DNA from: Candidatus Woesearchaeota archaeon
GTDB taxonomy: Archaea > Nanobdellota > Nanobdellia > SCGC-AAA011-G17 > PNOQ01
Direction: 5' to 3'
NCBI GenBank assembly: GCA_018652625.1
Contig: JABIBT010000018.1
Span: 4,566 to 68,565 of the forward strand
DNA: 64,000 bases
Shown here: piece by piece, positions 8,767 through 59,528 of the stretch
Layout of the letters: every line of letters starts with the position of its first letter
Position numbering within the stretch: the first letter of the stretch is position 1
Notes under the pieces: model-generated
What the model was told of the DNA's origin: nothing
Database searches by the model: none
What the model saw: only the letters and a program-made list of their open reading frames with translations
Made by a program: the position numbers and the translations under genes

Positions 8767-11700
8767 GTGGGTTATTTGCATAAAAAGAGGATAAAAGATA
8801 GAAGCTATTACTATACTACAATCCGTGAGAAGACCGGTAAAACCAAAACTATCTATTTGGGGGTCAATAGAAGAAAGGCAGTAGAAAAAGAAAAATCTCT
8901 TGGGATAACCCACAAAAAGTCTTCACACTTTATAAGTGTATTTTTAGTTATTTTTGCAATTCTCTCACTAGGATTAATAGGTTTCTCTTTTACTGGTTTT
9001 GTTGTTGAAGACGTAACAATTTCAGATATAACAGAAGTAGATAGCCCCAAAGAATTAGACCTAGAATTTGAAGAAGTAGTAGAAGAAGAAACAGAAGAAA
9101 TAATTTTGGAGGAAGAAGTTGAAACCAATGAAACGGAGATTGTTGAAGAAAAACCAGAAATAACAGAAGAAATAAACGAAACAATAGAACCTGAGATAAA
9201 TCAAACTGAAGTAAACCAAACCGAAGAAATAAACGAAACAGAAATAGTTGAAGAAAAACCAGAAATAACAGAAGAAATAAATGAAACAATAGAAATTAAC
9301 GAAACAATAGCAATAAACCAAACAGAAATAATTCTAAATACAACTAATCAAACAGTAATTAACCAAACCCTAGAACAGAATAAAAATATAACAGAACTAT
9401 ATTATGAAGTAATAGTAAACCAACAAGTAAAATGGGAAAAAGCAGTTGAACTTGAAAAAGAAGCTACCTCCTTAGAAGTAAAAATACCAAAAAAAGCAAA
9501 TAATATCACAATAACAAAAATAAGTGAACAAAAGAAAGAAACAAAAGAACCATATGTTGAAGCAAAAGAAACTAACATAATAACTGGAAATTTTTTCAGA
9601 AATTTAATAACGGGATTTGCAATATTTGAGGAAAAATCAGACGAACAAACCATAAAGATCAAAGGGCCACTAAAGGGAGCAATAGTGGAATATTATATGC
9701 CAGGTCCAAAAACAGAAGAAAAACAAATCTCGCAATGGAAAAAACAAATTATTGTATCAAGTGAAGAACACTATGAAAATATTTTAACATATACAAATAT
9801 ATCTAATTTTCCAGAAGAAGCAATTAACCTATATCATTTAACAGAAAAAGGGAGAGTGAAAACAGAATTTATATCAAATGACAAAGACGAAGATGGGTTA
9901 ATAGATTACATAGAATGGATAACCCCCCATCTAAGTAATGAAACATACGAAATAGAAATAACAATTTTAAATGTACAATCCTACCCTTCAGTTGGTGGAA
10001 ACTGGACTGTTTATTTTAACACAACTGGACAATCCGATTTAACAATAACTGGAATAAATGATACATATTTCGGGATAGATTTAGAACTTATAGAAATAAA
10101 ATGTGGGGACAAACAACTTCCCTACGAAGTAGGAGAAAATTCAATAACAGTAAAAAACTATACTTGTGAAAACACGGGTTCAGAAACAAGTAAAGTATTA
10201 ACTCCCGGAAAACATCACTTGGAATTCAATTTCGGAGGACAAATAGCGCATGCACATAATTTAGCAACAATCTCAACTTGTCAAACTCTAAGCGTAGCAA
10301 ACGAATATTACATATTGGATTCAGATATTCCAAATGATGATGGAACATGTTTTACAATAGGTGCAACAAATATAACTTTAGACTGTGAAGGTCATACAAT
10401 AGATGGAGACGGAGACGCTTCTGGATACGGAGTAATAATAAACAATGCAAACTACGATAATTTAACAATAACAAACTGTACAATTCAACAGTTTGCAAGA
10501 AATGTGTATGTTGGAGCAAGTTCAGATGATATTAGATTAGTTAACTCAAATTTCTTGGAAGGATATTATGATGGAGTTTTAACTTATTCTGTTCAAAATA
10601 TGTTTATAGAAAACAATACCTTTTCAGGATTGAATGAGTATGGTGCTTACTTCTGGCACTCTAGCTCAACATATGGAAATAATTGGACTATAAATAATAA
10701 TACTTTTACTGGAGGAACCACGTCCTCGGATTATGGCGTACAAATTGGATATCTAGATAACTCCACAATAACTAACAATTCATTCATTGGAGGGACAGGA
10801 TCAACATATGGGTATGGCGGAGCATATCAATATGGACACAATGTTATTATAAAAAACAATACCTTCGAAGGGAATTCCGTAGACAGAGATAGAGGATTAT
10901 ATTTACAATATGCAGATAATTTTACAATAACAAATAACACATTTTCTTCTAGCATAAATGATTACGCGTCCTTAGAAATGTATAGTACAACTAATTCAAG
11001 AGTCTTTAATAATTCAATGACCTCTCCTGCATCTTACGGACTAACTATTAGCTATTATTCATCAAATAATCAAATTGAGAATAATAATGTAACCTCTAGA
11101 AATGGAGTATATTTTGCAACATATTCTACAGACAATAATCTAACAAGCAATAGTATAATTTCTTCAACACTTTATGGGGTCTATATGAATAGTTATAATA
11201 CTGGAAACAGAATTGTAAACAATAACATTGTAGGTCAAACTTATACAGTATATGCAACAGCCTATTCTAACAATAATGATTATATTAATAATACGATGGT
11301 GTCGAATGCAAATTATGTCGTATATATGAATGACCATGCAGGAAATAATTTATTTTATAATAACGATATGACAAGCTCAGGTACATATGCTATCAGAGCA
11401 TATCTCGCTTCTGGAGGAAATAATTTTACTAAAAATAACATGACCTCTCCAAATAATGCTTTAAGATTAGAAAGCGATTGTAATGATAATATAGTGGATT
11501 CAAACATTATAAATTCAACAGCAAATATAGGAATTTACATAGTTACTGGATCAAGTGAAAATAACTTAATAAAAAACAATATAGTTTATGGTGGAACAAC
11601 AGCATTTCAGGATTCATCGGTAAATACAAACCTTAGATTAGTAAATAATTCTTTTTTTGCTACAAACGGGTGGGGAGCAGTTATAGTTGCAGGCACAAAT

Positions 11701-32561: not shown

Positions 32562-32981
32562 TTACCTCTCATAAGGACCATTTCCAGAAGCAAATCCTCT
32601 TCCAGATGAACCTTTCTGTCTCATTTTATTACCAAAGCCAGTTCCATCTTTTGGACCTTCTCCATTATGTAGACCTAACTCTGCTCTTAGCCTAGTCGCA
32701 GTTTCATAATCTCCATTTTCTGCTGCTTCATGAGCCAATACAAATGTTTCAAAATTTTCTTCTGAGACAACATCTAAAACTCTAGGATTTCTCCCACTTT
32801 CAGACATTAGTTCTATCCATGCATCATAATCTAAGGAATCAAATACTTCCTCCATTTCTGCATGTCTGTCTTCAGAATAGTTTGGACCTTCTTTTGTATA
32901 ATCTCCTTGGTATGCGCTAACAAATCCTGTCATTGCAATTAAACCAATCAAAAACACAACCGCAATATTTGTTTTTTTCAT
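32562..32981 (-). CDS. secreted hypothetical protein
   Basis: Signal peptide 'IAVVFLIGLIAMTGFVSA'. Acidic helical mature region and a Gly-rich tail. Confidence 0.4.
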   Translation of the reverse strand: MKKTNIAVVFLIGLIAMTGFVSAYQGDYTKEGPNYSEDRHAEMEEVFDSLDYDAWIELMSESGRNPRVLDVVSEENFETFVLAHEAAENGDYETATRLRAELGLHNGEGPKDGTGFGNKMRQKGSSGRGFASGNGPYER

Positions 32982-33103
32982 TTTTCTTTTACCTCCTTAA
33001 TTTTTATTTAGTATGATATAAATTCTTTATAAGTCGGGTGGACCTAAAGTCCATGCTATTTAAAAACGCTTAAATAACCATTTTATACACTAAGATTTGT
33101 AAA

Positions 33104-33781
33104 ATGCAACAGCAATTAATGGGCAGAATGGTCCAAATGGGATTAGGGGCAGAGTTAATCTACGCATTCATAATTATAATAAGTAGTTTAATGATTTATT
33201 TTGGTACAAAAGAATTGTACGAACTAACTAAATACAAAGGAATAAAATATTTCCGAGAAGCATTTCTGTTATTTGCAATCGCATTCTTCTTTAGATCTTT
33301 TATAAAATCCATAATGATTCTTTTCGGGTTAAGTAGGCCCCATGATTTTCAATTGTTAGGAATAGTTTCTTTATTCATATTTTTGTATACAATCACTCTT
33401 GCTATGTTTTATTTACTCTATAGCATAATGTGGAAAAAATGGAGAAAATCTCCAAAAATAATTTACTTATTTCATATTTTGGCAATCTTAATAGCTATTT
33501 TGAGTTTAATCACAGGGAATATCACGATAATTTTGTTGGTAAATATATTGCTCTTAATCTTGATTTTAAGTATAACTTACATCGCTCATAAAAATCCAAG
33601 AAAGAAAGGACAGAGTATACACTTAATTTATGTTTTATTATCTCTCTTTTTAATTTTAAATGTTATAGATATACTAATACCAAATTTCTTACAGTTATAT
33701 CAATTAATGATATATTTGCTTTCCATAGGAATATTTTTGTTAATTTTTTACAAAGTACTTAAAAAATCTGGTTCGGACTAA
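33104..33781 (+). CDS. polytopic membrane protein
   Basis: About six hydrophobic helices. Confidence 0.45.
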   Translation: MQQQLMGRMVQMGLGAELIYAFIIIISSLMIYFGTKELYELTKYKGIKYFREAFLLFAIAFFFRSFIKSIMILFGLSRPHDFQLLGIVSLFIFLYTITLAMFYLLYSIMWKKWRKSPKIIYLFHILAILIAILSLITGNITIILLVNILLLILILSITYIAHKNPRKKGQSIHLIYVLLSLFLILNVIDILIPNFLQLYQLMIYLLSIGIFLLIFYKVLKKSGSD

Positions 33782-33782
33782 A

Positions 33783-34046
33783 ATGAAAAAAAGAAGTAAA
33801 TTTGAAATCATGAAAGATATTTTACAAACAGTTCAGAATAATCCAGATATAAAAACAACACCATTGTTAAGAAAATCTAACTTATCTACTTTAAGATTCA
33901 AACAATATTATGAAGATTTATTAAAAAAAGAACTAATAAAAGAAACCGAAAATAAAGGAAAGTTTGTTAATTTAACAGAAAAAGGTTTTAGATTCTTAGA
34001 TAAATATAAAACAATTTTAAACTTTATTGACGAGTTTGATCTGTGA
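33783..34046 (+). CDS. small winged-helix DNA-binding protein
   Basis: 87 aa with a helix-turn-helix-like centre. Coupled to the upstream membrane gene (1-nt gap). Confidence 0.35.
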   Translation: MKKRSKFEIMKDILQTVQNNPDIKTTPLLRKSNLSTLRFKQYYEDLLKKELIKETENKGKFVNLTEKGFRFLDKYKTILNFIDEFDL

Positions 34047-35016
34047 TTTCAGTCTCAACGTTCTCTAAATTGAAATAACCACTTGAGAAATTATAAGCAC
34101 CAGCATTCAAAAAAACAATCTTATCCCCAACCCTAACTTCTTTATCAAAATAAACTTTATATCTAAATATATCCAAAGAATCAGGAGTTATTCCTTTAAT
34201 TGTATAACAAAAACCTTTTTCTCTTTCATCTTCAACTAACAATCTAATATTAGCAACGAAAGTATCCATTGCAGAATTATATACAGAAGCATCCACAATT
34301 ATATTATTATCATAAACATTAACAACTTCAGTTTCTAACCTTATTGAAGGAGCCGCAATAAACCTACCTGGCTCAATTATCATCTTAATCTTTTTAGCAT
34401 TCAAAAACTCTCTTAATTCTTTAATCTTAGTAAAAATATGTTCTGAGACCTCTTTCCTAAAATTCTTATACTCTGCAGGAATTCCGCCCCCAATATTAAC
34501 TAAATCTAATAAAGAAAAATCTTCAATAGAATCTTCTAACTCTTCTTTCAAATTCCACTCTGAAACATTTTGAGTCTTTCTATGGAAATGTATTCCTAAT
34601 TGCTTTATATTTTTATTATTCCTTAATTTTGGAAGTAGGTTATTTATTTCTTTACTTGAAAAACCAAAAACAAAATGCTTCCCTGTATGAATTGTATGTT
34701 CTCTCAATCTAAACCTTAATAATAAGTTTATTTTTCTATCTTCTTTTAACAATAAATTTAAATCATTAATATTATCCACAACAAAATTATCGACTTCTTT
34801 TGGAATTTCTTTATTTCCCTGTAGAAAAAACCAAACATTCTTAGAATTTACTTGTTTTAAATTATTAACAGAATGAATACTCAAAAAACAATTATCTTGT
34901 AAGATCTTTCCTATTTCTGGATTGCTCTTAAAAGAATATGAAATTTCATCAGCTAAGGATTTCATTATCTCCAACTGTTCGAATACTTGCTTTTTACTTA
35001 GTATAAATTTTGCCAT
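34024..35016 (-). CDS. fold-type III PLP-dependent decarboxylase (Orn/DAP/Arg decarboxylase family), compact
   Basis: 'SFKSN' (PLP-Lys context), 'NIGGGIP' (Gly-rich loop), 'EPGRFIAAPS' (the EPGR motif), and a C-terminal 'NAGAY'. Confidence 0.5.
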   Translation of the reverse strand: MAKFILSKKQVFEQLEIMKSLADEISYSFKSNPEIGKILQDNCFLSIHSVNNLKQVNSKNVWFFLQGNKEIPKEVDNFVVDNINDLNLLLKEDRKINLLLRFRLREHTIHTGKHFVFGFSSKEINNLLPKLRNNKNIKQLGIHFHRKTQNVSEWNLKEELEDSIEDFSLLDLVNIGGGIPAEYKNFRKEVSEHIFTKIKELREFLNAKKIKMIIEPGRFIAAPSIRLETEVVNVYDNNIIVDASVYNSAMDTFVANIRLLVEDEREKGFCYTIKGITPDSLDIFRYKVYFDKEVRVGDKIVFLNAGAYNFSSGYFNLENVETEITDQTRQ

Positions 35017-35066
35017 GATTTTAGAGTAAGCATAACCCTTTTAAAGATTGTTTTTGAGTTTAGATT

Positions 35067-35270
35067 ATGAAAAAATCAAAAAAAGACATGAAATGCAATG
35101 TCAAAGATCACGGTTGTGGAGGAGCATTATATTTCGTAGGATTTATTGGGGCAGCCGTTTATTACATCTCAACAGCAACTTCATTTTGGGGAGGAGTTTT
35201 GGGGGTAATAAAAGCAATTGTTTGGCCAGCATTTTTAGTATTTGAAGCAATGAAATTTTTCGTGATGTAA
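35067..35270 (+). CDS. small membrane protein
   Basis: 67 aa with two hydrophobic segments. The overlapping frame 35048..35245 is rejected. Confidence 0.3.
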   Translation: MKKSKKDMKCNVKDHGCGGALYFVGFIGAAVYYISTATSFWGGVLGVIKAIVWPAFLVFEAMKFFVM

Positions 35271-35537
35271 ATAAAAACACATTTAGATTGTAGTACTTGC
35301 TAAATACATTATCAGAAAGAAGATTATCCCAACTAAGTACCAATATTTTACAAGGAAAGAATTAAATTTTGGATATTTATTATAATTCTCTTTTATTAAT
35401 TTAACTTTTGAAGGATTTTTTATTCTATAAGATACAGCAAAACGCAAACCAAGAGCAAAAACCATTGCTAGAATCAAAGATTGCATAAATTCAAAAACCA
35501 TAACAACTTCTAATTTTATAACTATTTAAAACTTACT

Positions 35538-36035
35538 CTAAACAGAAACACAACAAATGTTAGGCGAAATAAAGCCTGTAACATCTCCTACATTTTTTTC
35601 ATCTTCTAAACAAGTATCTCCCCCAACTACATTAACTATTCTTCCACCAAAATTTTCACATTCTTCAGGAGTTAGAGAAGTTTCTTTTACTTCCCAATCT
35701 TCAAGAGTTACCTTAATCCTATCTTTGCCTTTTTCTATTTCAACCACAAAACAACCCGGGCATCTTGCAGAAACAACTTCAATGATTGTAATGCCTTTTT
35801 CATAACCTAAAAATTCAACTGCTATCTTTGCAGCATCTTTCTGATTTTCATTTAATTCCCATTCCCTTAAACAAGCGTTAACATCTTCATTATAACTATA
35901 TCCTGCTGGACCTAAACAACCATTTTCATCTCTTTCTCCACCAACCGGATTTACTTCAACTCTACGTTGGACAGTTAGTAATAAGCCTAGAATGATTAGT
36001 ATAAGTATAATAACAAAGATAGTTATTTTTTTCAT
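35538..36035 (-). CDS. secreted Cys-rich protein
   Basis: Signal/TM 'ITIFVIILILIILGLLLTV'. About 10 Cys. Confidence 0.4.
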   Translation of the reverse strand: MKKITIFVIILILIILGLLLTVQRRVEVNPVGGERDENGCLGPAGYSYNEDVNACLREWELNENQKDAAKIAVEFLGYEKGITIIEVVSARCPGCFVVEIEKGKDRIKVTLEDWEVKETSLTPEECENFGGRIVNVVGGDTCLEDEKNVGDVTGFISPNICCVSV

Positions 36036-36658
36036 AAATCAAACACCTCATAGTCCGTTAAAAGTTTAGTTATTCTTGAATCGGCACAGCTCCCAAAACA
36101 ATCTTCCTCAGTCACACAATGGGAAGTCTCACATTCAATTATCCTAGGTTTAATATTACAATTTTCTTCCACCCAGCCAGTATTAACATATAATCCACGA
36201 ACTTCTTCCCCATTAATCATAAAATACTCATATTCCCTTCTAGCAACCTCTCCAGTAGAAATATCACCATTAAGGTAGGTTACATATCCTCTGTCTTTTA
36301 TCCATTCTTCCGGACAAATTTTTAAATTAGTATATTCAACATCACAACAACAAAGTTTATCTTGTTCTATACAATCCCTTGTTGACCCTCCTGCCCGCGA
36401 TACTTGATTTTTCAAAAGTCCGCACTGCCTTAAACTACAATGCTCCCCAGAAAACTGCTTATTTTCTTCTTGAGACCAAATAGTTTTTGTACACATCTGT
36501 TCACAAGTCAAATCGCCCACCTCGTAGCAAGTATCTGGATCATCTATTAGTTTTATACATTCAGCAGATGAGGGATTGTGGATTTGAGTACAACTAGAAA
36601 TAAAAGTCAAAATAACTATAAAAAAAATCATTACTCTATATTTTCTATACATTTTCAT
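36032..36658 (-). CDS. secreted Cys-rich protein
   Basis: Signal peptide followed by ~20 Cys. Overlaps the downstream gene by 4 nt. Confidence 0.4.
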   Translation of the reverse strand: MKMYRKYRVMIFFIVILTFISSCTQIHNPSSAECIKLIDDPDTCYEVGDLTCEQMCTKTIWSQEENKQFSGEHCSLRQCGLLKNQVSRAGGSTRDCIEQDKLCCCDVEYTNLKICPEEWIKDRGYVTYLNGDISTGEVARREYEYFMINGEEVRGLYVNTGWVEENCNIKPRIIECETSHCVTEEDCFGSCADSRITKLLTDYEVFDL

Positions 36659-36706
36659 AACTAAATCAAATAAAACTAATATAAAAAGATTTGCAAGACT
36701 TTAAAC

Positions 36707-37202
36707 TTATTTCTTCGAATAAATCATGTATTCAATTATTAATGTAAATACTGGAAACAAAACACTCAAAAGAATTGAACTATCTTTTCCAATGCTTGTA
36801 GTTTCTAACAAAAAGAATACTATTAAACCTAAGGTTATTGCTTGCAAGATTCCAAATATCCAAAATATATTTTTATTTGTCATTTTTTTCCTTTCTTAAA
36901 AAAGGTTTTTTGTATTAAGGGATTCAGATTATAACCTAATCCAAATCCAATAAACAGCATTCCAATAAGCTTATTGCTACCTAATAGGGCGATTCCCACT
37001 ACAACCAAACCCGCTCCCAATGTGTCTTGTATTTTCATTTTTCAGAAAAACCTCTCCAAAAAAGAATCCCTATAACAATTCCAATAAAAAATAAAAGTAA
37101 TGGTCCTGGTTGACGTTTAGATAATAATAATCCGGTAATTGCTATCGCCGGTGCTATTCCATACATAGCTTTCTTTGGGATTGTTATACTATTTTTTGCC
37201 AT
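36707..37202 (-). CDS. three tandem, translationally coupled small membrane-protein ORFs (58, 52 and 53 aa) below the ORF-track cutoff
   Basis: Minus-strand ATGs at 37202, 37038 and 36883, with stops at 37042-44, 36880-82 and 36707-09. ORF2's stop overlaps ORF3's start as ATGA. Each encodes one or two hydrophobic helices. Confidence 0.3.
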
Positions 37203-37203
37203 T

Positions 37204-37530
37204 TTATTTCTTTTTCAACTTCACAGCAGTACCAAAAGCTAACATTTCAGAAGCACCTTGCAAAATCATGGAAGTCATAAACCTAGCTCCAATAATTGCA
37301 TCTGCACCAAGATCAATAGCTTGATTCACCATTCTGTTAAAAGCTTCATCTCTAGCATTATTTGCCATATCAGTATAAGTTTTTATTTCTCCACCAACAA
37401 GATTCTTAAAACTAGCACCAATATCTCTACCAACATTTCTTGCTCTTACAGTACTTCCTCTAACCACTCCTAAAATCTCTCCAACGTCATTATTAGGAAC
37501 TTCATTCCCGGTTGTAACAATTATTTTCAT
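37204..37530 (-). CDS. YbjQ/UPF0145 (DUF74) family protein
   Basis: The sequence 'IIVTTGNEVPN..VGEILGVVRGSTVRARNVGRDI..FKNLVGGEIKTYTDM' matches the YbjQ family consensus. Confidence 0.65.
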   Translation of the reverse strand: MKIIVTTGNEVPNNDVGEILGVVRGSTVRARNVGRDIGASFKNLVGGEIKTYTDMANNARDEAFNRMVNQAIDLGADAIIGARFMTSMILQGASEMLAFGTAVKLKKK

Positions 37531-37727
37531 TTTTTTGCCCCCTTAATTTGTTCAATTTTATCTTCTTTATTATTGAATATTAACCAAATCCCTACGATTA
37601 ATGAAGGAACTCCATACATCAAAGTAACCCATTGACTCTCATCAATATAAAAAGAAAGAATTATTAAGAAAATTCCTAAAATTATTAATCCAATACCCGA
37701 CAATATCCTACTTGTTAAATTTGACAT
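37527..37727 (-). CDS. small membrane protein
   Basis: 66 aa with two TM helices. Overlaps the YbjQ gene by 4 nt. Confidence 0.35.
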   Translation of the reverse strand: MSNLTSRILSGIGLIILGIFLIILSFYIDESQWVTLMYGVPSLIVGIWLIFNNKEDKIEQIKGAKK

Positions 37728-37924
37728 AAATATCTTAATAAGGAGAAGTTTTTAAACCTTTTCTTAACAAAAACATATTTAAACAATCCTTCTTTACCTT
37801 AACCATGAAAATAACAAAATTCGCTCAATCTTGCATTTTACTAGAAACAAAAGGAAAAAGAAAAGAGTTAAATATAAAAAGCCTTCCGAAAAAATGTCAG
37901 CTCGACGGCGTTTGAGTCTACAAC

Positions 37925-38200
37925 CTAACCTTCTTGTAATCTCTTAATAGGTCTATACCCATCAAAAGAATTCAAATTTTTTAAGTCTGCATAAATCTTT
38001 CCATCTAAGTCTCTAGTTTGACAGGCCACTAAAAAATTCTCTCCACTATCTAAATAATTAAAGACTACACCACCCACATATAACGGAAAAAATAATCTCC
38101 CACTTCTAACTTCTCCTAATTCAAAGGGGTCAAAATCTGCATCAATTGTTTCCCCCTCCAATCTTGGTAAGTGTGCCACATCCTCTAATGTAATTGCCAT
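37925..38200 (-). CDS. hypothetical protein
   Basis: 91-aa ORF with no motif. Confidence 0.3.
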   Translation of the reverse strand: MAITLEDVAHLPRLEGETIDADFDPFELGEVRSGRLFFPLYVGGVVFNYLDSGENFLVACQTRDLDGKIYADLKNLNSFDGYRPIKRLQEG

Positions 38201-38239
38201 GTATTTCGAGAATTATCAATCGTTTTTAAAGCTAACGAT

Positions 38240-38926
38240 TTACTCCAACAACCCCTCAGAACTCAACTCCTCCAAAACACTAACCATCACCAAAGGAAAA
38301 GTAACACTAACATCACCAATAACAGTAACAGCATCCGAATCATCTTTAATCTTACCCCAACTTTTAGCTTCATTAGTCGAAGCACCAGACATAGAACCAG
38401 AGTAAGAACTAGCAGTTGTCATATAAACAGCATAATCCAATCCACCATTCAACAAACAAGCCAAAATAGCATGATGCTTACTAATACTCCCTCCTAAAGA
38501 TATCAAACCTTTCTTCTCATCCTGTGAAGTACTAAACAATATATTACTAAAATCCTTAACTACATCAACTATAAAATCAGAATGATCCTGCTGAAACATA
38601 AACAAATGAAAACCAAAAGCCCCATCAGTCACAGCCGGACAAAATATTGGAACTTTCTTCTTAGCAGCCTGAAATAAGATAGAATCCTCATCCTCTAACT
38701 TTAAACCTATTTCATTAAATATCTCAGAAGGAGTAACTCTCTTTTTAGAAGAATAAATATCTTTCAAATAAGGTTTCATCAAATCTTCAAACTTAGCATA
38801 AGATTCTGTTCTAATAAACAAATTTCCAACCCTATTAACTCCTTTTTCATATAATTCAACATCATCCTCTGAAAAGCTTCCTATTACGAAGTCTTCATTA
38901 TGAGCTTTCATAATATCTTCTTCCAA
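38240..38926 (-). pseudogene. deoxyhypusine synthase fragment (C-terminal ~70%; N-terminal ~95 aa missing), a recent duplicate of 39284..40225
   Basis: Protein is ~95% identical to residues ~97-313 of the downstream full-length DHS. The nucleotide sequences are near-identical. The only start available is an internal TTG. Confidence 0.55.
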
Positions 38927-38955
38927 ACCACCAACAGTCGTAACAACAACAACAA

Positions 38956-39267
38956 TTAGCCAAAGTTTAACAAAATGAGCGAGAAAAAACCTATAAGTAA
39001 ATACCTAGCAATAAGGTATCCTAAAATCAAGCTTACTGCCACTAAAATAATTTTTTTTGGAGTACCACTAATACCCACTTTTATATAACTCAATATGCCA
39101 TAGAATACCAAAGCCAAACCAATAAATGGAACACCAATAATCCAATACTTAACCAAACCATTAATTAAAGGAGACTGAAAAATCCATGGCCCAACTAACC
39201 AAATAGCAACAAAACTAAAAACAAGAACTATTACTCCCCATAAAATAAATTTATTATTTGTATTCAT
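38956..39267 (-). CDS. small 3-TM membrane protein
   Basis: 103 aa. A distant paralog of 40266..40532. Confidence 0.4.
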   Translation of the reverse strand: MNTNNKFILWGVIVLVFSFVAIWLVGPWIFQSPLINGLVKYWIIGVPFIGLALVFYGILSYIKVGISGTPKKIILVAVSLILGYLIARYLLIGFFSLILLNFG

Positions 39268-39283
39268 ACACTAATTATTTATT

Positions 39284-40225
39284 TTACTCCTTTAATAAAT
39301 TTTCCTTCTCCAACGCCTCAAGAACCGAAACCATTACCAAAGGAAAAGTCACAGAAACATCACCAATTACAGTTACAGCATCCGAATCATCCTTTATCTT
39401 TCCCCACGACTTAGCTTCATTTGTCGAAGCCCCAGACATAGAACCACTAGAACTAGAAGCAGTTGTCATATAAACAGCATAATCCAATCCACCATTCAAC
39501 AAACAAGCCAAAATAGCATGATGCTTACTAATACTCCCCCCTAAAGATATCAAACCTTTCTTCTCATCCTGTGAAGTACTAAACAATATATTAGAAAAAT
39601 CCTTAACCACATCAACTACAAAATCAGAATGATCCTGCTGAAACATAAACAAATGAAAACCAAAAGCCCCATCAGTCACAGCCGGACAAAATATTGGAAC
39701 TTTCTTCTTAGCAGCCTGAAATAATATTGAATCCTCATCATCTAACTTTAAACCTATTTCATTAAATATCTCAGAAGGAGTAACCCTTTTCTTCTTAGAA
39801 TAAATATCTTTCAAATAAGGTTTCATCAAATCCTCAAACTTTGCATAAGATTCTGACCTAATAAACAAATTTCCAACCCTATTTACTCCTTTTTCATATA
39901 ATTCAACATCATTACTATTAAAATCACCAATTACAAAATCCTCCTTATGGGCCTTCATGATATCTTCCTCAATACCGCCTACAGTAGTTACAACAACATC
40001 AACCAAACCTAATTTTATCAACTGCGCAAAAAACCCACGTAAACCAGAAGTAACCATATTCGAAGTAAAAGTCAAATAAATCTTACAACCATCTTTTTTC
40101 ATTTTAATTATAGTCTCCTTAGCCCTCTCCAAATGAATTGCTTGAAAACCAACTTTACCTAGAGAATTAACTAACGTAGCTACATCCATTCCTTTCTTCC
40201 ACTTCAAATCTTTAACTAAATCCAT
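39284..40225 (-). CDS. dys: deoxyhypusine synthase
   Basis: 'VDVVVTTVGGIEEDIMK' (the DHS signature region) and the N-terminal NAD-binding segment 'YLTFTSNMVTSGLRG'. 313 aa, the archaeal DHS size. Confidence 0.75.
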   Translation of the reverse strand: MDLVKDLKWKKGMDVATLVNSLGKVGFQAIHLERAKETIIKMKKDGCKIYLTFTSNMVTSGLRGFFAQLIKLGLVDVVVTTVGGIEEDIMKAHKEDFVIGDFNSNDVELYEKGVNRVGNLFIRSESYAKFEDLMKPYLKDIYSKKKRVTPSEIFNEIGLKLDDEDSILFQAAKKKVPIFCPAVTDGAFGFHLFMFQQDHSDFVVDVVKDFSNILFSTSQDEKKGLISLGGSISKHHAILACLLNGGLDYAVYMTTASSSSGSMSGASTNEAKSWGKIKDDSDAVTVIGDVSVTFPLVMVSVLEALEKENLLKE

Positions 40226-40265
40226 TAAAAAAGAAGAAAAGAACTAATTTTTAAACCTTTCCTTG

Positions 40266-40532
40266 CTAATAGAATGAAAATGCCAACATAAATAGTAAAG
40301 CAACCAGGGCCCAGGCCAAAATTAATCCAATTACAACGGCTAATATAGTCATTACCCCTTTCTTCCAAAAAGAGCCTTTTGAGGAATCCAGTAAACCATA
40401 GAAAACCATTCCGAATCCTATAGTTAAAATCCCAATATGTAAAAATAGGTTGAAACTAAGGACAAATCCAAGAATCAGTGATAAGACAATCAGCCCTACG
40501 CCCCAAACTAATAAATTTTTGTTTGATTTCAT
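40266..40532 (-). CDS. small 3-TM membrane protein
   Basis: 88 aa. Same architecture as 38956..39267. Confidence 0.4.
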   Translation of the reverse strand: MKSNKNLLVWGVGLIVLSLILGFVLSFNLFLHIGILTIGFGMVFYGLLDSSKGSFWKKGVMTILAVVIGLILAWALVALLFMLAFSFY

Positions 40533-40609
40533 AAAAATAAACTGATAAATAAACTATATAAAACTATTCTTTAACTAAATCCCTTAGAAAAGAAGAAAAT
40601 AACTAACTT

Positions 40610-41305
40610 TTAAGGGTTTGCTTCACCACATATCCCCCTAGTTGGCGGGCCAGACGGGCAGTCCATTCCTGCAGGACATCCACTCGGAATATAGTGGTTG
40701 TTAGAACAACAATCATTACAGCTAGGTTCAGAACCAGGAGATAATTGACAGTATTCTCCATCCCCTATACAATCTTCTTTAAAGCCACAACAATAATCGG
40801 GAACACATCCTTCACATTCCAATGGTTCCGAATCGCAAAACGTATATCCTCCAGAGCAACATTTTTCCTCACATGCATCTGGAAGGTGACACTTCTCTCC
40901 ATCGGCCAAACAATAAGAAGAACCCCCACCGGGGCAGATAATTTCACATTGATTATCTATACAATCAACAACTGTACAATGCGCACAAGAATACTCACAA
41001 AAACTACTCTTTGGCATATATGAATCAACCAATTCCCTTATTCTATATTCTTCATTAATATTAACAGAAACATAACAACCAAAAGGACACTTCCCACCAA
41101 AACTCACACAATCCTCTTTAACATTACAATAATTAGCATCATCAATTTCTCCCTTTATATTTGATTCATGAATTGGCAATATTAAAATATCATATAAAAT
41201 CGGAGACAACATCCAAAAAATAATAATAAAAACCAAAACAACCCAAAACCACCACTTCTTAAGTAGATTCATTCTTCCTCCTTTTAAAAAAGTAAATTGC
41301 CCCAA
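40610..41305 (-). CDS. secreted, extremely Cys-rich protein (~40 Cys in 231 aa)
   Basis: Signal-anchor 'WWFWVVLVFIIIFWMLSPIL'. Repeated CxxxC, CC and CxxC spacing. Confidence 0.45.
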   Translation of the reverse strand: MGQFTFLKGGRMNLLKKWWFWVVLVFIIIFWMLSPILYDILILPIHESNIKGEIDDANYCNVKEDCVSFGGKCPFGCYVSVNINEEYRIRELVDSYMPKSSFCEYSCAHCTVVDCIDNQCEIICPGGGSSYCLADGEKCHLPDACEEKCCSGGYTFCDSEPLECEGCVPDYCCGFKEDCIGDGEYCQLSPGSEPSCNDCCSNNHYIPSGCPAGMDCPSGPPTRGICGEANP

Positions 41306-41705
41306 TAAAAATAACTAAAAGAACAACAATAGGAAATATCATTCGGGAAACTTTAAAAAAATCAATAGAAGTAACCATATTTCCCACAGTAATTGGCTTA
41401 CACATGGGTTGCCCAATATATCCTCCCTTTATGTGAGACATAAGACCATCACAACATTCCTCAAAATGAAAAACAAACTCCCCAGATTCTACACAAGGAA
41501 AATCCTTAACATATTCAACACCACAATCACCACTATAAAAATCTCCAATATCACAAGAGTTCCCATCATCAAAAACACATTTTAGATTTTCTCTGTCAAT
41601 AGCATATCCCTGGTGCTCACAAAATGGAGTAACAGCATCCATTGCAGCATAAGAACTAAAAGATAATATAAAAACAAACATCAAAATTAAAATACTTTTT
41701 TTCAT
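41259..41705 (-). CDS. Cys-rich secreted protein with a C-terminal TM anchor
   Basis: Signal peptide, ~12 Cys, and a C-terminal 'IFPIVVLLVIFIGAIYFF' anchor. Confidence 0.4.
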   Translation of the reverse strand: MKKSILILMFVFILSFSSYAAMDAVTPFCEHQGYAIDRENLKCVFDDGNSCDIGDFYSGDCGVEYVKDFPCVESGEFVFHFEECCDGLMSHIKGGYIGQPMCKPITVGNMVTSIDFFKVSRMIFPIVVLLVIFIGAIYFFKRRKNEST

Positions 41706-59454: not shown

Positions 59455-59528
59455 GGGGTCGTAGTATAAGCTGGTTAGTATGAGAGGCTCCAACCCTCTA
59501 GATCCCGGTTCAAATCCGGGCGACCTCA
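59455..59528 (+). tRNA. tRNA-Trp (anticodon CCA), 74 nt, intronless, CCA not encoded
   Basis: Hand-folded cloverleaf. The acceptor stem GGGGTCG/CGACCTC is 7 bp with one G-U. The D stem is 4 bp, with a GG-containing D loop. The anticodon stem AGAGG/CCTCT has loop CTCCAAC (U33, anticodon CCA, A37). The T arm CCCGG-TTCAAAT-CCGGG is present, and the discriminator is A. Confidence 0.85.

Follow-up and report, generated by a model that had tools for sequence, protein, structure and literature searches.

A deoxyhypusine synthase gene, an orphan gene and a truncated synthase copy at a recombining locus of a marine woesearchaeote

Deoxyhypusine synthase (DHS) is the single enzyme that starts the hypusination of aIF5A. 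What, then, is a partial second copy of its gene doing beside the intact one? We address this question for a locus found in a marine population of Candidatus Woesearchaeota (DPANN), as represented by 64,000 nt of contig JABIBT010000018.1, hereafter the window. Read 5' to 3' on the minus strand, the locus consists of a cysteine-rich open reading frame (ORF), a decayed promoter copy, a hydrophobic protein gene (TM2), a promoter-like region, the intact DHS gene (FULL), a second hydrophobic protein gene (TM1) that starts 16 nt past the FULL stop codon, a 5'-truncated DHS copy (FRAG), a 91-aa ORF (o91), a 66-aa ORF and a YbjQ-family gene (Table 1). All coordinates are window positions, and nucleotide and residue numbers within genes follow the DHS gene. 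A partial second DHS invites regulatory speculation; the evidence points to genome dynamics instead. The explanation that we lean towards, with a confidence slightly better than even, is that FRAG is a remnant, that the arrangement would have originated by insertion-duplication, and that its repeats recombine with each other. This belongs to a known kind of locus, in which a partial copy or pseudogene undergoes gene conversion, and is not new biology.

Table 1. Features of the DHS locus, in window positions
Feature	Position	Strand	Basis or remark
FULL, intact DHS, 313 aa	39284-40225	-	PF01916 profile match
FRAG, 5'-truncated DHS copy	38240-38926	-	start TTG 38926 (228 aa) or ATG 38911 (223 aa)
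TM1, orphan hydrophobic protein gene, 103 aa, between both DHS repeats	38956-39267	-	hydropathy, junction analysis
Direct repeat, copy in FRAG	38264-38991		gapped alignment
Direct repeat, copy in FULL	39311-40035		gapped alignment; offset 1,047 bp
Functional DHS promoter-like region (TTTAAAA + ~23 nt) and first 5-6 codons of FULL	40209-40264	-	motif conserved in relative
Decayed duplicate of DHS promoter and first 5-6 codons (ATG -> AGG)	40568-40623	-	repeat family D3, 86%
TM2, hydrophobic protein gene, 88 aa, weak paralog of TM1, just upstream of FULL	40266-40532	-	
o91, 91-aa ORF immediately downstream of FRAG	37925-38200	-	marks right boundary; adjoins single hybrid DHS in deletion variants
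Cysteine-rich ORF, 231 aa	40610-41305	-	

The direct repeat is real and well past chance. A gapped alignment of its two copies is identical in 652 of 735 columns (89%), BLASTN gives 90.6% over 678 nt, and the FULL and FRAG proteins share 212 of 228 residues (93%, E=1e-160) over FULL residues 85-312. The original prediction, made from the sequence alone, had described near-identical direct repeats offset by about 1045 bp and estimated at more than 90% identity. Pairwise alignment confirms the repeats and moves the offset to 1,047 bp; the identity estimate holds for the core and fails for the flanks, since identity is very uneven along the gene: 63-66% at nt 191-313, 93% at nt 314-500, 98% at nt 501-768 and 74-75% at nt 769-939. 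The same prediction called the truncated copy 'upstream', which is true of its window position, but in gene orientation it lies downstream of FULL. It also had this copy begin at residue ~97 without an ATG. DHS homology in fact begins around residue 61-64, in a frame open from a stop codon just upstream of 39001, and the first canonical starts are a TTG at residue 85 and an in-frame ATG at the conserved Met90. Depending on the gene caller, the FRAG product has 223, 228 or 238 aa.

FULL, correctly recognized from the outset as a complete DHS of 313 aa beside an N-terminally truncated copy, is an ordinary archaeal DHS, and NCBI lists its protein under Candidatus Woesearchaeota. It scores 334.2 bits against PF01916 (cut-off 27; 8e-100), covering profile positions 2-286 of 288, and matches the DHS of P. 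horikoshii (7cmc) at 1e-63 and human DHS at 2e-59. Its AlphaFold (AF2) model has a predicted local distance difference test score (pLDDT) of 83 and a predicted template modelling score (pTM) of 0.85. Alignment to the human and P. horikoshii enzymes locates the nicotinamide adenine dinucleotide (NAD)-binding motifs TSNxxSSG and TTxGGxEED, the catalytic Lys (human K329) and the His (H288); the NAD-binding motifs and catalytic residues are invariant across a 20-sequence alignment. Upstream, the spacing of TTTAAAA, about 23 nt and ATG implies a leaderless mRNA, and this promoter/start motif is also kept upstream of both DHS genes (DHS-A and DHS-B) of a relative genome.

The least biological explanation would be a mis-assembly of strain variants of one DHS gene. 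The repeat does break contigs of metagenome-assembled genomes (MAGs): contigs of several assemblies stop inside it, among them L002, L007 and the NCBI MAG contig L181 (GCA_018657985.1, JABHWC010000022.1), which matches window 32956-39505 at 100% identity and breaks off within FULL. Single-gene versions of the locus exist as well. However, no fewer than eight contigs span the complete arrangement, at 99.9-100% identity across both junctions; they come from different JGI and ENA samples and from two assemblers, megahit and SPAdes. TM1 was found on 31 contigs. TM1 is unique sequence, joined on one side to a FULL-type 3' end and on the other to a FRAG-type 5' junction, both from parts of the repeat where divergence is strong. 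FULL and FRAG have no exact run in common longer than 105-116 nt, which is less than the final k of megahit (k=141). These properties exclude a mis-assembly of the two-copy arrangement, a caveat attached to the original prediction, and we give the artefact next to no credence.

How old are the two DHS sequences, and where do they come from? Among 168 relatives screened with 6-8 kb of flank on each side, only one lineage (contigs L016 and L089-L092; ~90% amino-acid identity) has a second DHS nearby, in the form of two full-length paralogs, A and B, ~6.8 kb apart. The 'recent segmental duplication' initially proposed for the window does not agree with the divergence of its copies. The flanks of FULL and FRAG differ by 25-37%, and synonymous divergence (dS) is saturated in both, as against 0.16-0.36 in the core. 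At least seven serine codons have switched between TCN and AGY with the protein unchanged, and the overall ratio of non-synonymous to synonymous divergence (omega) is ~0.24. Saturated flanks, silent serine switches and low omega together imply that the differences accrued while both sequences were working genes. The FRAG flanks, moreover, are closer to DHS-A of L090 (R_A; identities of 0.81 and 0.85) than to neighbouring FULL (0.66 and 0.74), and at residues 101-105, 124 and 162 it is FRAG that carries the clade consensus and FULL that deviates.

The core behaves differently. At nt 501-768, identity is 0.94-0.98 among FULL, FRAG, L090 A and B, L098 and L113, and the FULL-FRAG value is no higher than that between DHS genes of different clade genomes. 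Between the window genome and genome R, third codon positions of DHS are ~0.90 identical in the core and 0.65-0.70 in the flanks; for neighbouring genes, nucleotide identity is 81-94%. Given flanks closer to the DHS of other genomes and a core identity equalled between genomes, FULL and FRAG are two DHS lineages from the clade gene pool whose core has been homogenised clade-wide, and not a recent duplication in situ. On a larger scale, the central ~450 nt of DHS (nt 314-768) is 93-98% identical among the window, L090, L016, L098 and L113, whereas the flanking genes are just 81-94% identical, which suggests that inter-genome recombination sweeps have shaped the DHS core.

Recombination between the two copies has left marks within the population. 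Each of the three single nucleotide polymorphisms (SNPs) inside the repeat gives its copy the base found in the other one: FULL nt 687 G->A (L007/L008), FULL nt 607 V203I (P0002) and FRAG nt 618 A->G (L005). Because every one of them is of this kind, the SNPs indicate gene conversion in both directions; elsewhere in the 2.8-kb region, eight contigs display just one SNP, in the promoter remnant. In addition, five contigs from five samples (L093, L094, L095, L183 and L184) bear a single hybrid DHS composed of a FULL 5' part and a FRAG 3' part, with TM2 upstream, o91 downstream and neither TM1 nor FRAG, in flanks that match the window at 100% for 8 kb on either side. The crossovers fall at nt 441-486 in L183, a contig with private SNPs as well, at nt 501-631 in L093-L095 and at nt 632-687 in L184, in exact runs of 44, 105 and 54 nt, respectively. 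Since all these runs are shorter than the megahit k, most hybrids are probably real deletions, and the several distinct crossover points would make the two-copy state ancestral in the population, from which it collapses recurrently. Set against this, L184 is a 2.6x SPAdes contig whose 54-nt run equals k-1 for k=55, and the single-gene hybrids could in part, L184 especially, reflect repeat collapse during assembly.

One contig, L096 (1,616 bp), places the unit in another background. It contains a full-length mosaic DHS, a spacer, TM1, the FRAG junction and divergent DHS sequence. The first copy is of a divergent type (Z') up to nt ~236, with its own upstream region ~64-70% identical to FULL, then FRAG-type at nt 237-632 and FULL-type at nt 687-942. 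The second copy starts with the FRAG junction (nt 189-276) and continues from nt 277 as a divergent, in-frame DHS of type Z. About 1.1 kb of L096 is 100% identical to the window and is flanked by sequence that is ~60-70% identical; the divergent 5' and 3' parts have their best matches in the same distant loci. A Z gene without interruption (P0169/L182) occurs in another sample and is 96% identical to the 3' part of L096. A composite-query search for such a gene gave only partial proteins, of which P0169 was the best (96% over the 3' two-thirds), and did not retrieve the Z 5' end elsewhere at high identity. These matches make Z an independent DHS lineage. An origin of FRAG itself from this lineage was considered and rejected, as the FRAG flanks show no particular similarity to Z (0.61-0.70).

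L096 is unlikely to be a de Bruijn chimera, since the shared runs at its junctions measure a few tens of nt. Its structure fits the Campbell-type integration, into the Z' gene at nt ~237-276, of an excised 1,047-bp circle composed of FULL (nt c-942), TM1 and FRAG (nt 189-c), with c between 633 and 686. The interval for c, at which copy 1 of L096 switches type, coincides with the crossover interval of hybrid L184 (nt 632-687), as expected if a circle had excised and reintegrated. Linear DNA of a converted donor, entering by a double crossover, would explain the structure just as well. Whichever the route, L096 suggests that a unit made of the DHS 3' part and TM1 moved by homologous recombination into a divergent DHS gene. 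It counts against this transfer that it is seen on one short contig of 1.6 kb. No integrase or other recombinase appears in the gene tables within 10 kb on either side, and the 1,047-bp unit holds only TM1.

The history that we favour would then run as follows. A unit consisting of DHS nt ~190-942 and TM1 would recombine homologously into a resident DHS gene, by insertion-duplication. Because the unit carries the DHS 3' end, its integration would always yield one complete DHS and a 5'-truncated leftover, and the resulting ~730-nt direct repeats would then mediate conversion, excision and occasional transfer. Any present role would lie at the DNA level: the DHS repeats would make TM1 an excisable, transferable cassette, and FRAG would act as a donor of sequence variants to the working DHS gene.

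Could FRAG instead act as a protein? It might be a functional N-terminally truncated DHS subunit that co-assembles with FULL in a regulatory or dominant-negative manner, or that acts independently. DHS active sites form between subunits, and regulatory paralogs are known: trypanosomatids combine an active DHS (DHSc) with a catalytically dead paralog (DHSp) as a heterotetramer (PMC3663545), and Entamoeba has a DHS pair, DHS1 and DHS2, in one genome (PMC7909649). As in these pairs, the window genome holds two DHS-derived genes and, with active sites at the interface, a second subunit could modulate the first. Much in the FRAG sequence speaks for such a function and against a mere remnant. Its retained part has no stop codons or frameshifts, the frame being uninterrupted for ~250 codons in a 31% GC genome, and no disabling substitution occurs past residue 76. 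Omega relative to FULL is ~0.24. The catalytic Lys (SWGK) and His (SKHH) are identical to those of FULL, clade-consensus residues are found throughout residues 85-313, and the in-frame ATG at Met90 has a purine-rich stretch before it. The gaps between FULL, TM1 and FRAG are short and contain no T-run terminator, and FRAG is probably co-transcribed with the other two.

Structure and distribution lead us to the opposite conclusion. FRAG matches PF01916 at profile positions 70-286 only and remains under the NCBIfam equivalog cut-offs (NF002294, 250.8 vs 350; TIGR00321, 222 vs 304). When set against the human and P. horikoshii enzymes, a FRAG product that begins at residue 85 or 90 is missing the NAD-binding motif TSNxxSSG, and one that begins at the ATG is missing TTxGGxEED too; TSNMVTSG (residues 54-61) is absent from the FRAG ORF. 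In the AlphaFold model of FULL, strands beta1 (48-53) and beta2 (77-80) and four helices all lie upstream of the FRAG start, leaving a predicted product that lacks the first beta-alpha-beta unit and two central-sheet strands. In FRAG, the DHS frame has degenerated over residues 61-75, with nine non-conservative changes in a clade-invariant stretch, and this degeneracy coincides with the out-of-frame overlap by the last ~15 TM1 codons. A promoter scan with the clade's own TATA/start motif, sigma-70 models being unsuited to an archaeon, found no occurrence upstream of FRAG, the motif being present only at 40210-40238 and, decayed, at 40569-40597. The fragment is found in none of the 168 relatives, and TM1 and FRAG are missing from the five hybrid-bearing sibling contigs despite identical flanks, although some of these contigs might be assembly collapses. 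An exact scan of the metagenome_contigs collection, which lacks the relevant samples, gave no match to a FRAG-specific 43-mer.

The trypanosomatid and Entamoeba paralogs, for their part, are full-length, have lost catalytic residues, are conserved in their lineages and are essential. Unlike them, FRAG is ~85-90 residues shorter, keeps the catalytic Lys, is polymorphic in one population and is absent from relatives. It is therefore not a prozyme-type partner, its fold being truncated with the catalytic residues kept, and not conserved with the active copy across the lineage. The features that speak for function can be accounted for otherwise: the ORF would be intact because truncation was recent relative to divergence and because conversion with FULL keeps refreshing it, and low omega would follow from divergence before truncation together with conversion. 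On balance FRAG is very probably a non-functional remnant, and a working subunit is a decidedly improbable alternative. The original prediction had likewise judged the truncated copy, deprived of the N-terminal NAD-binding part, to be probably non-functional; its suggestion of a dominant-negative role receives no support from a fragment that only part of its own population carries and that none of the relatives has. On L181, the NCBI annotation gives FRAG 238 aa, begins it at an ATT that overlaps the stop codon of TM1, and labels it an ordinary DHS-family protein; it would be best flagged as partial or pseudo.

Our preferred account has rivals on the ultimate origin of the arrangement, which may have been any of three events: the insertion-duplication described above, an old duplication in situ, or the juxtaposition of the two full-length paralogs seen in a relative. 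In the second case, a tandem duplication of [small TM gene - promoter - DHS] would have been followed by deletion of the TM1 3' end, of the second promoter and of DHS codons 1 to ~63, with conversion homogenising the core. The original prediction offered a scenario of this kind, an older [TM-DHS] duplication with later gene conversion, as a secondary idea, and it is nearer to the data than that of a recent duplication. As it had noted, a small hydrophobic ORF does precede each DHS copy: TM1 and TM2 are weak paralogs of one another, sharing 25% identity (pairwise E=1e-4) and the same topology (3-4 hydrophobic segments each). The diverged flanks suit an old event, and gene conversion is demonstrably active. 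Yet TM2 occupies a slot of its own between 56-nt repeats, and in a relative this slot, broken at the identical point, houses unrelated cargo. Relatives lack TM genes beside DHS, TM1 has no homolog outside the population, the FRAG flanks are nearer to DHS-A of another genome than to FULL, and L096 has the unit in a foreign DHS background. For these reasons we regard the duplication in situ as rather unlikely.

An equally modest chance goes to the view that FRAG is what is left of a second chromosomal paralog, the L090/L016 lineage keeping A and B at full length while a rearrangement joined them here and deleted the 5' end of A. Gene order is its strength. The cysteine-rich gene, promoter remnant and FULL of the window correspond to the cysteine-rich gene, promoter remnant and DHS-B of the L090 lineage; FRAG, the 66-aa ORF and YbjQ correspond to DHS-A, a 59-aa ORF and YbjQ; and CSD lies upstream in both genomes. 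The FRAG 3' segment resembles DHS-A (85-89% identity) more than DHS-B (82%), and A and B likewise share a more similar core. But the FULL sequence is not assignable to B: its 5' end is 86% identical to A and 83% to B, and its C-terminal tail is A-like. An assignment of FULL to B and FRAG to A by sequence thus failed through mosaicism, and synteny alone backs it. Further, the gene-order difference between the genomes exceeds one rearrangement, and the joining of paralogs leaves TM1 and L096 unexplained.

Near the paralogs of L090 (JGI 3300007512), L016, L089, L091 and L092 lie toxin-antitoxin-like genes (NTP_transf_2, DUF2283) and an rve_3 fragment, and downstream in the L090-type lineage are RecQ, MutS_I and a phage-type integrase; the CSD-YbjQ region is a rearrangement hot spot. 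The JGI 3300072015 contig with P0009, from another relative, has a full DHS and, ~10 kb away, a separate 130-aa ORF with a DS (PF01916) match. This fragment and the paralog pair point to recurrent duplication and fragmentation of DHS in the clade.

The DHS 5' end looks like a second insertion slot. The 56-nt direct repeats that bracket TM2 (promoter and first codons in Table 1) are 359 nt apart, with 0 expected by chance, and have L090 counterparts at 9535-9563 and 9988-10016. In both the window and the L090 lineage, the remnant of promoter and 5' codons downstream of the cysteine-rich gene breaks off at one and the same point, after GTTAAAG, and different cargo follows it: TM2 in the window, a VapC/PIN 3' remnant and a 78-aa antisense ORF in the L090 lineage. 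In a more daring version of our account, which we hold to be doubtful, the 1,047-bp unit would be an integrase-free mini-cassette with the essential DHS as its landing pad. It would excise as a circle via the DHS repeats, re-enter even fairly divergent woesearchaeotal DHS genes by homologous recombination at the conserved patch encoding VVTTVGGxEEDIMKA, and rebuild an intact DHS each time. The 5' end would be a second such slot, since it harbours TM2 here and toxin-antitoxin remnants in relatives, bracketed by repeats of promoter and first codons.

A search of 5.8 billion sequences places TM1 in a single protein cluster, whose members all belong to this population or to L096, and Pfam, NCBIfam and PADLOC return no family for TM1, TM2, o91 or the cysteine-rich protein. 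The last ~15 TM1 codons (encoding RYLLIGFFSLILLNFG, then the stop) overlap DHS-derived sequence in another frame at window 38956-39001. That alternative frame of FULL also ends with RFG and a stop at the position equivalent to the TM1 end, and nucleotide homology under the overlap is weak (20/43 ungapped, top 1.2% of background). As the DHS frame is degenerate only under this overlap, the TM1 end is possibly an overprint on DHS-derived sequence. A TM1-FRAG fusion by -1 frameshifting at a T TTT TTC heptamer of the TM1 frame, which would lead into the DHS frame, was also considered and rejected: the heptamer occurs 96 times in the window against 81 expected, derives from conserved GFF codons and is followed by RNA structure that is ordinary (z = -0.97).

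Other features of the neighbourhood deserve mention. Several paralogous cysteine-rich, signal-peptide-like ORFs (165, 208, 231 and 148 aa) surround the locus at window 35538-36658 and 40610-41705; they have no family match, and their homologs in the relative are 61-79% identical. Five tiny hydrophobic ORFs (52-66 aa) form a run around the YbjQ_1 gene at 36707-37727, each with a TATA-like motif upstream (for instance at 37740-37765, where it resembles the DHS promoter). About 3 kb downstream of the DHS locus, on the minus strand at ~34024-35016, is a gene of the ornithine/arginine/diaminopimelate (DAP) decarboxylase family (polyamine synthesis), a plausible functional neighbour of the spermidine-using DHS. 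On the opposite strand, the 3' end of each DHS copy is crossed by an ORF of 68-84 aa (plus strand, 38199-38405 and 39258-39473) containing TITKGKVTETSPITVTASESS. These antisense ORFs are conserved in relatives (L090 10753-11001; L098 5483-5737) and are probably a compositional by-product of the DHS coding sequence. The repeat contains no RNA gene or structured element, an Rfam search having found just a tRNA-Trp in the window, at 59455-59528.

How does the locus compare with known recombining systems? Some integrative elements carry the 3' end of their protein-coding target gene, such as prophage e14 and phage 21 in icd of E. coli. Like these, the DHS locus has an intact (hybrid) target gene, cargo and a displaced partial copy as a direct repeat, and the essential gene survives the insertion. 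Unlike them, it has no integrase in its surroundings, its cargo is one 312-nt ORF, its displaced copy is 5'-truncated with the incoming unit bringing the 3' part, and a ~730-nt repeat with variable crossovers takes the place of a short att core. Another parallel comes from the minimal mobile elements (MMEs) of Neisseria, islands that are swapped by homologous recombination between conserved flanks, and from Campbell-type insertion-duplication. In common with both, the DHS locus has cargo between homologous flanks, alleles with an empty site in the same population (L093, L183, L184) and an identical unit in a divergent background (L096). In contrast to MMEs, both of its flanks derive from a single essential gene, whose parts are permuted, and its transfer is seen on a single short contig. 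We know of no documented case, in DPANN archaea, of cargo flanked by permuted parts of one essential gene, and a literature search found no description of DHS duplicates or fragments in these organisms.

The exchange between FULL and FRAG, on the other hand, recalls concerted evolution by gene conversion, as in tufA and tufB of Salmonella. The DHS copies share with these genes a homogenised core, diverged edges and polymorphisms that swap to the state of the paralog. They differ in that one partner is truncated and probably non-functional, and in that the homogenised core is common to several clade genomes, which implies inter-genome recombination as well.

The mechanisms of gene flow in DPANN archaea are poorly known. 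At this locus, in an uncultivated population, an essential gene appears to serve as a recombination substrate: it encloses an orphan membrane-protein gene, exchanges sequence with the truncated copy beside it, undergoes repeated collapse and seems to have taken its cargo into a divergent DHS. If this is true, the locus would offer a clean natural example of both cassette mobility by homologous recombination and concerted evolution in DPANN archaea.

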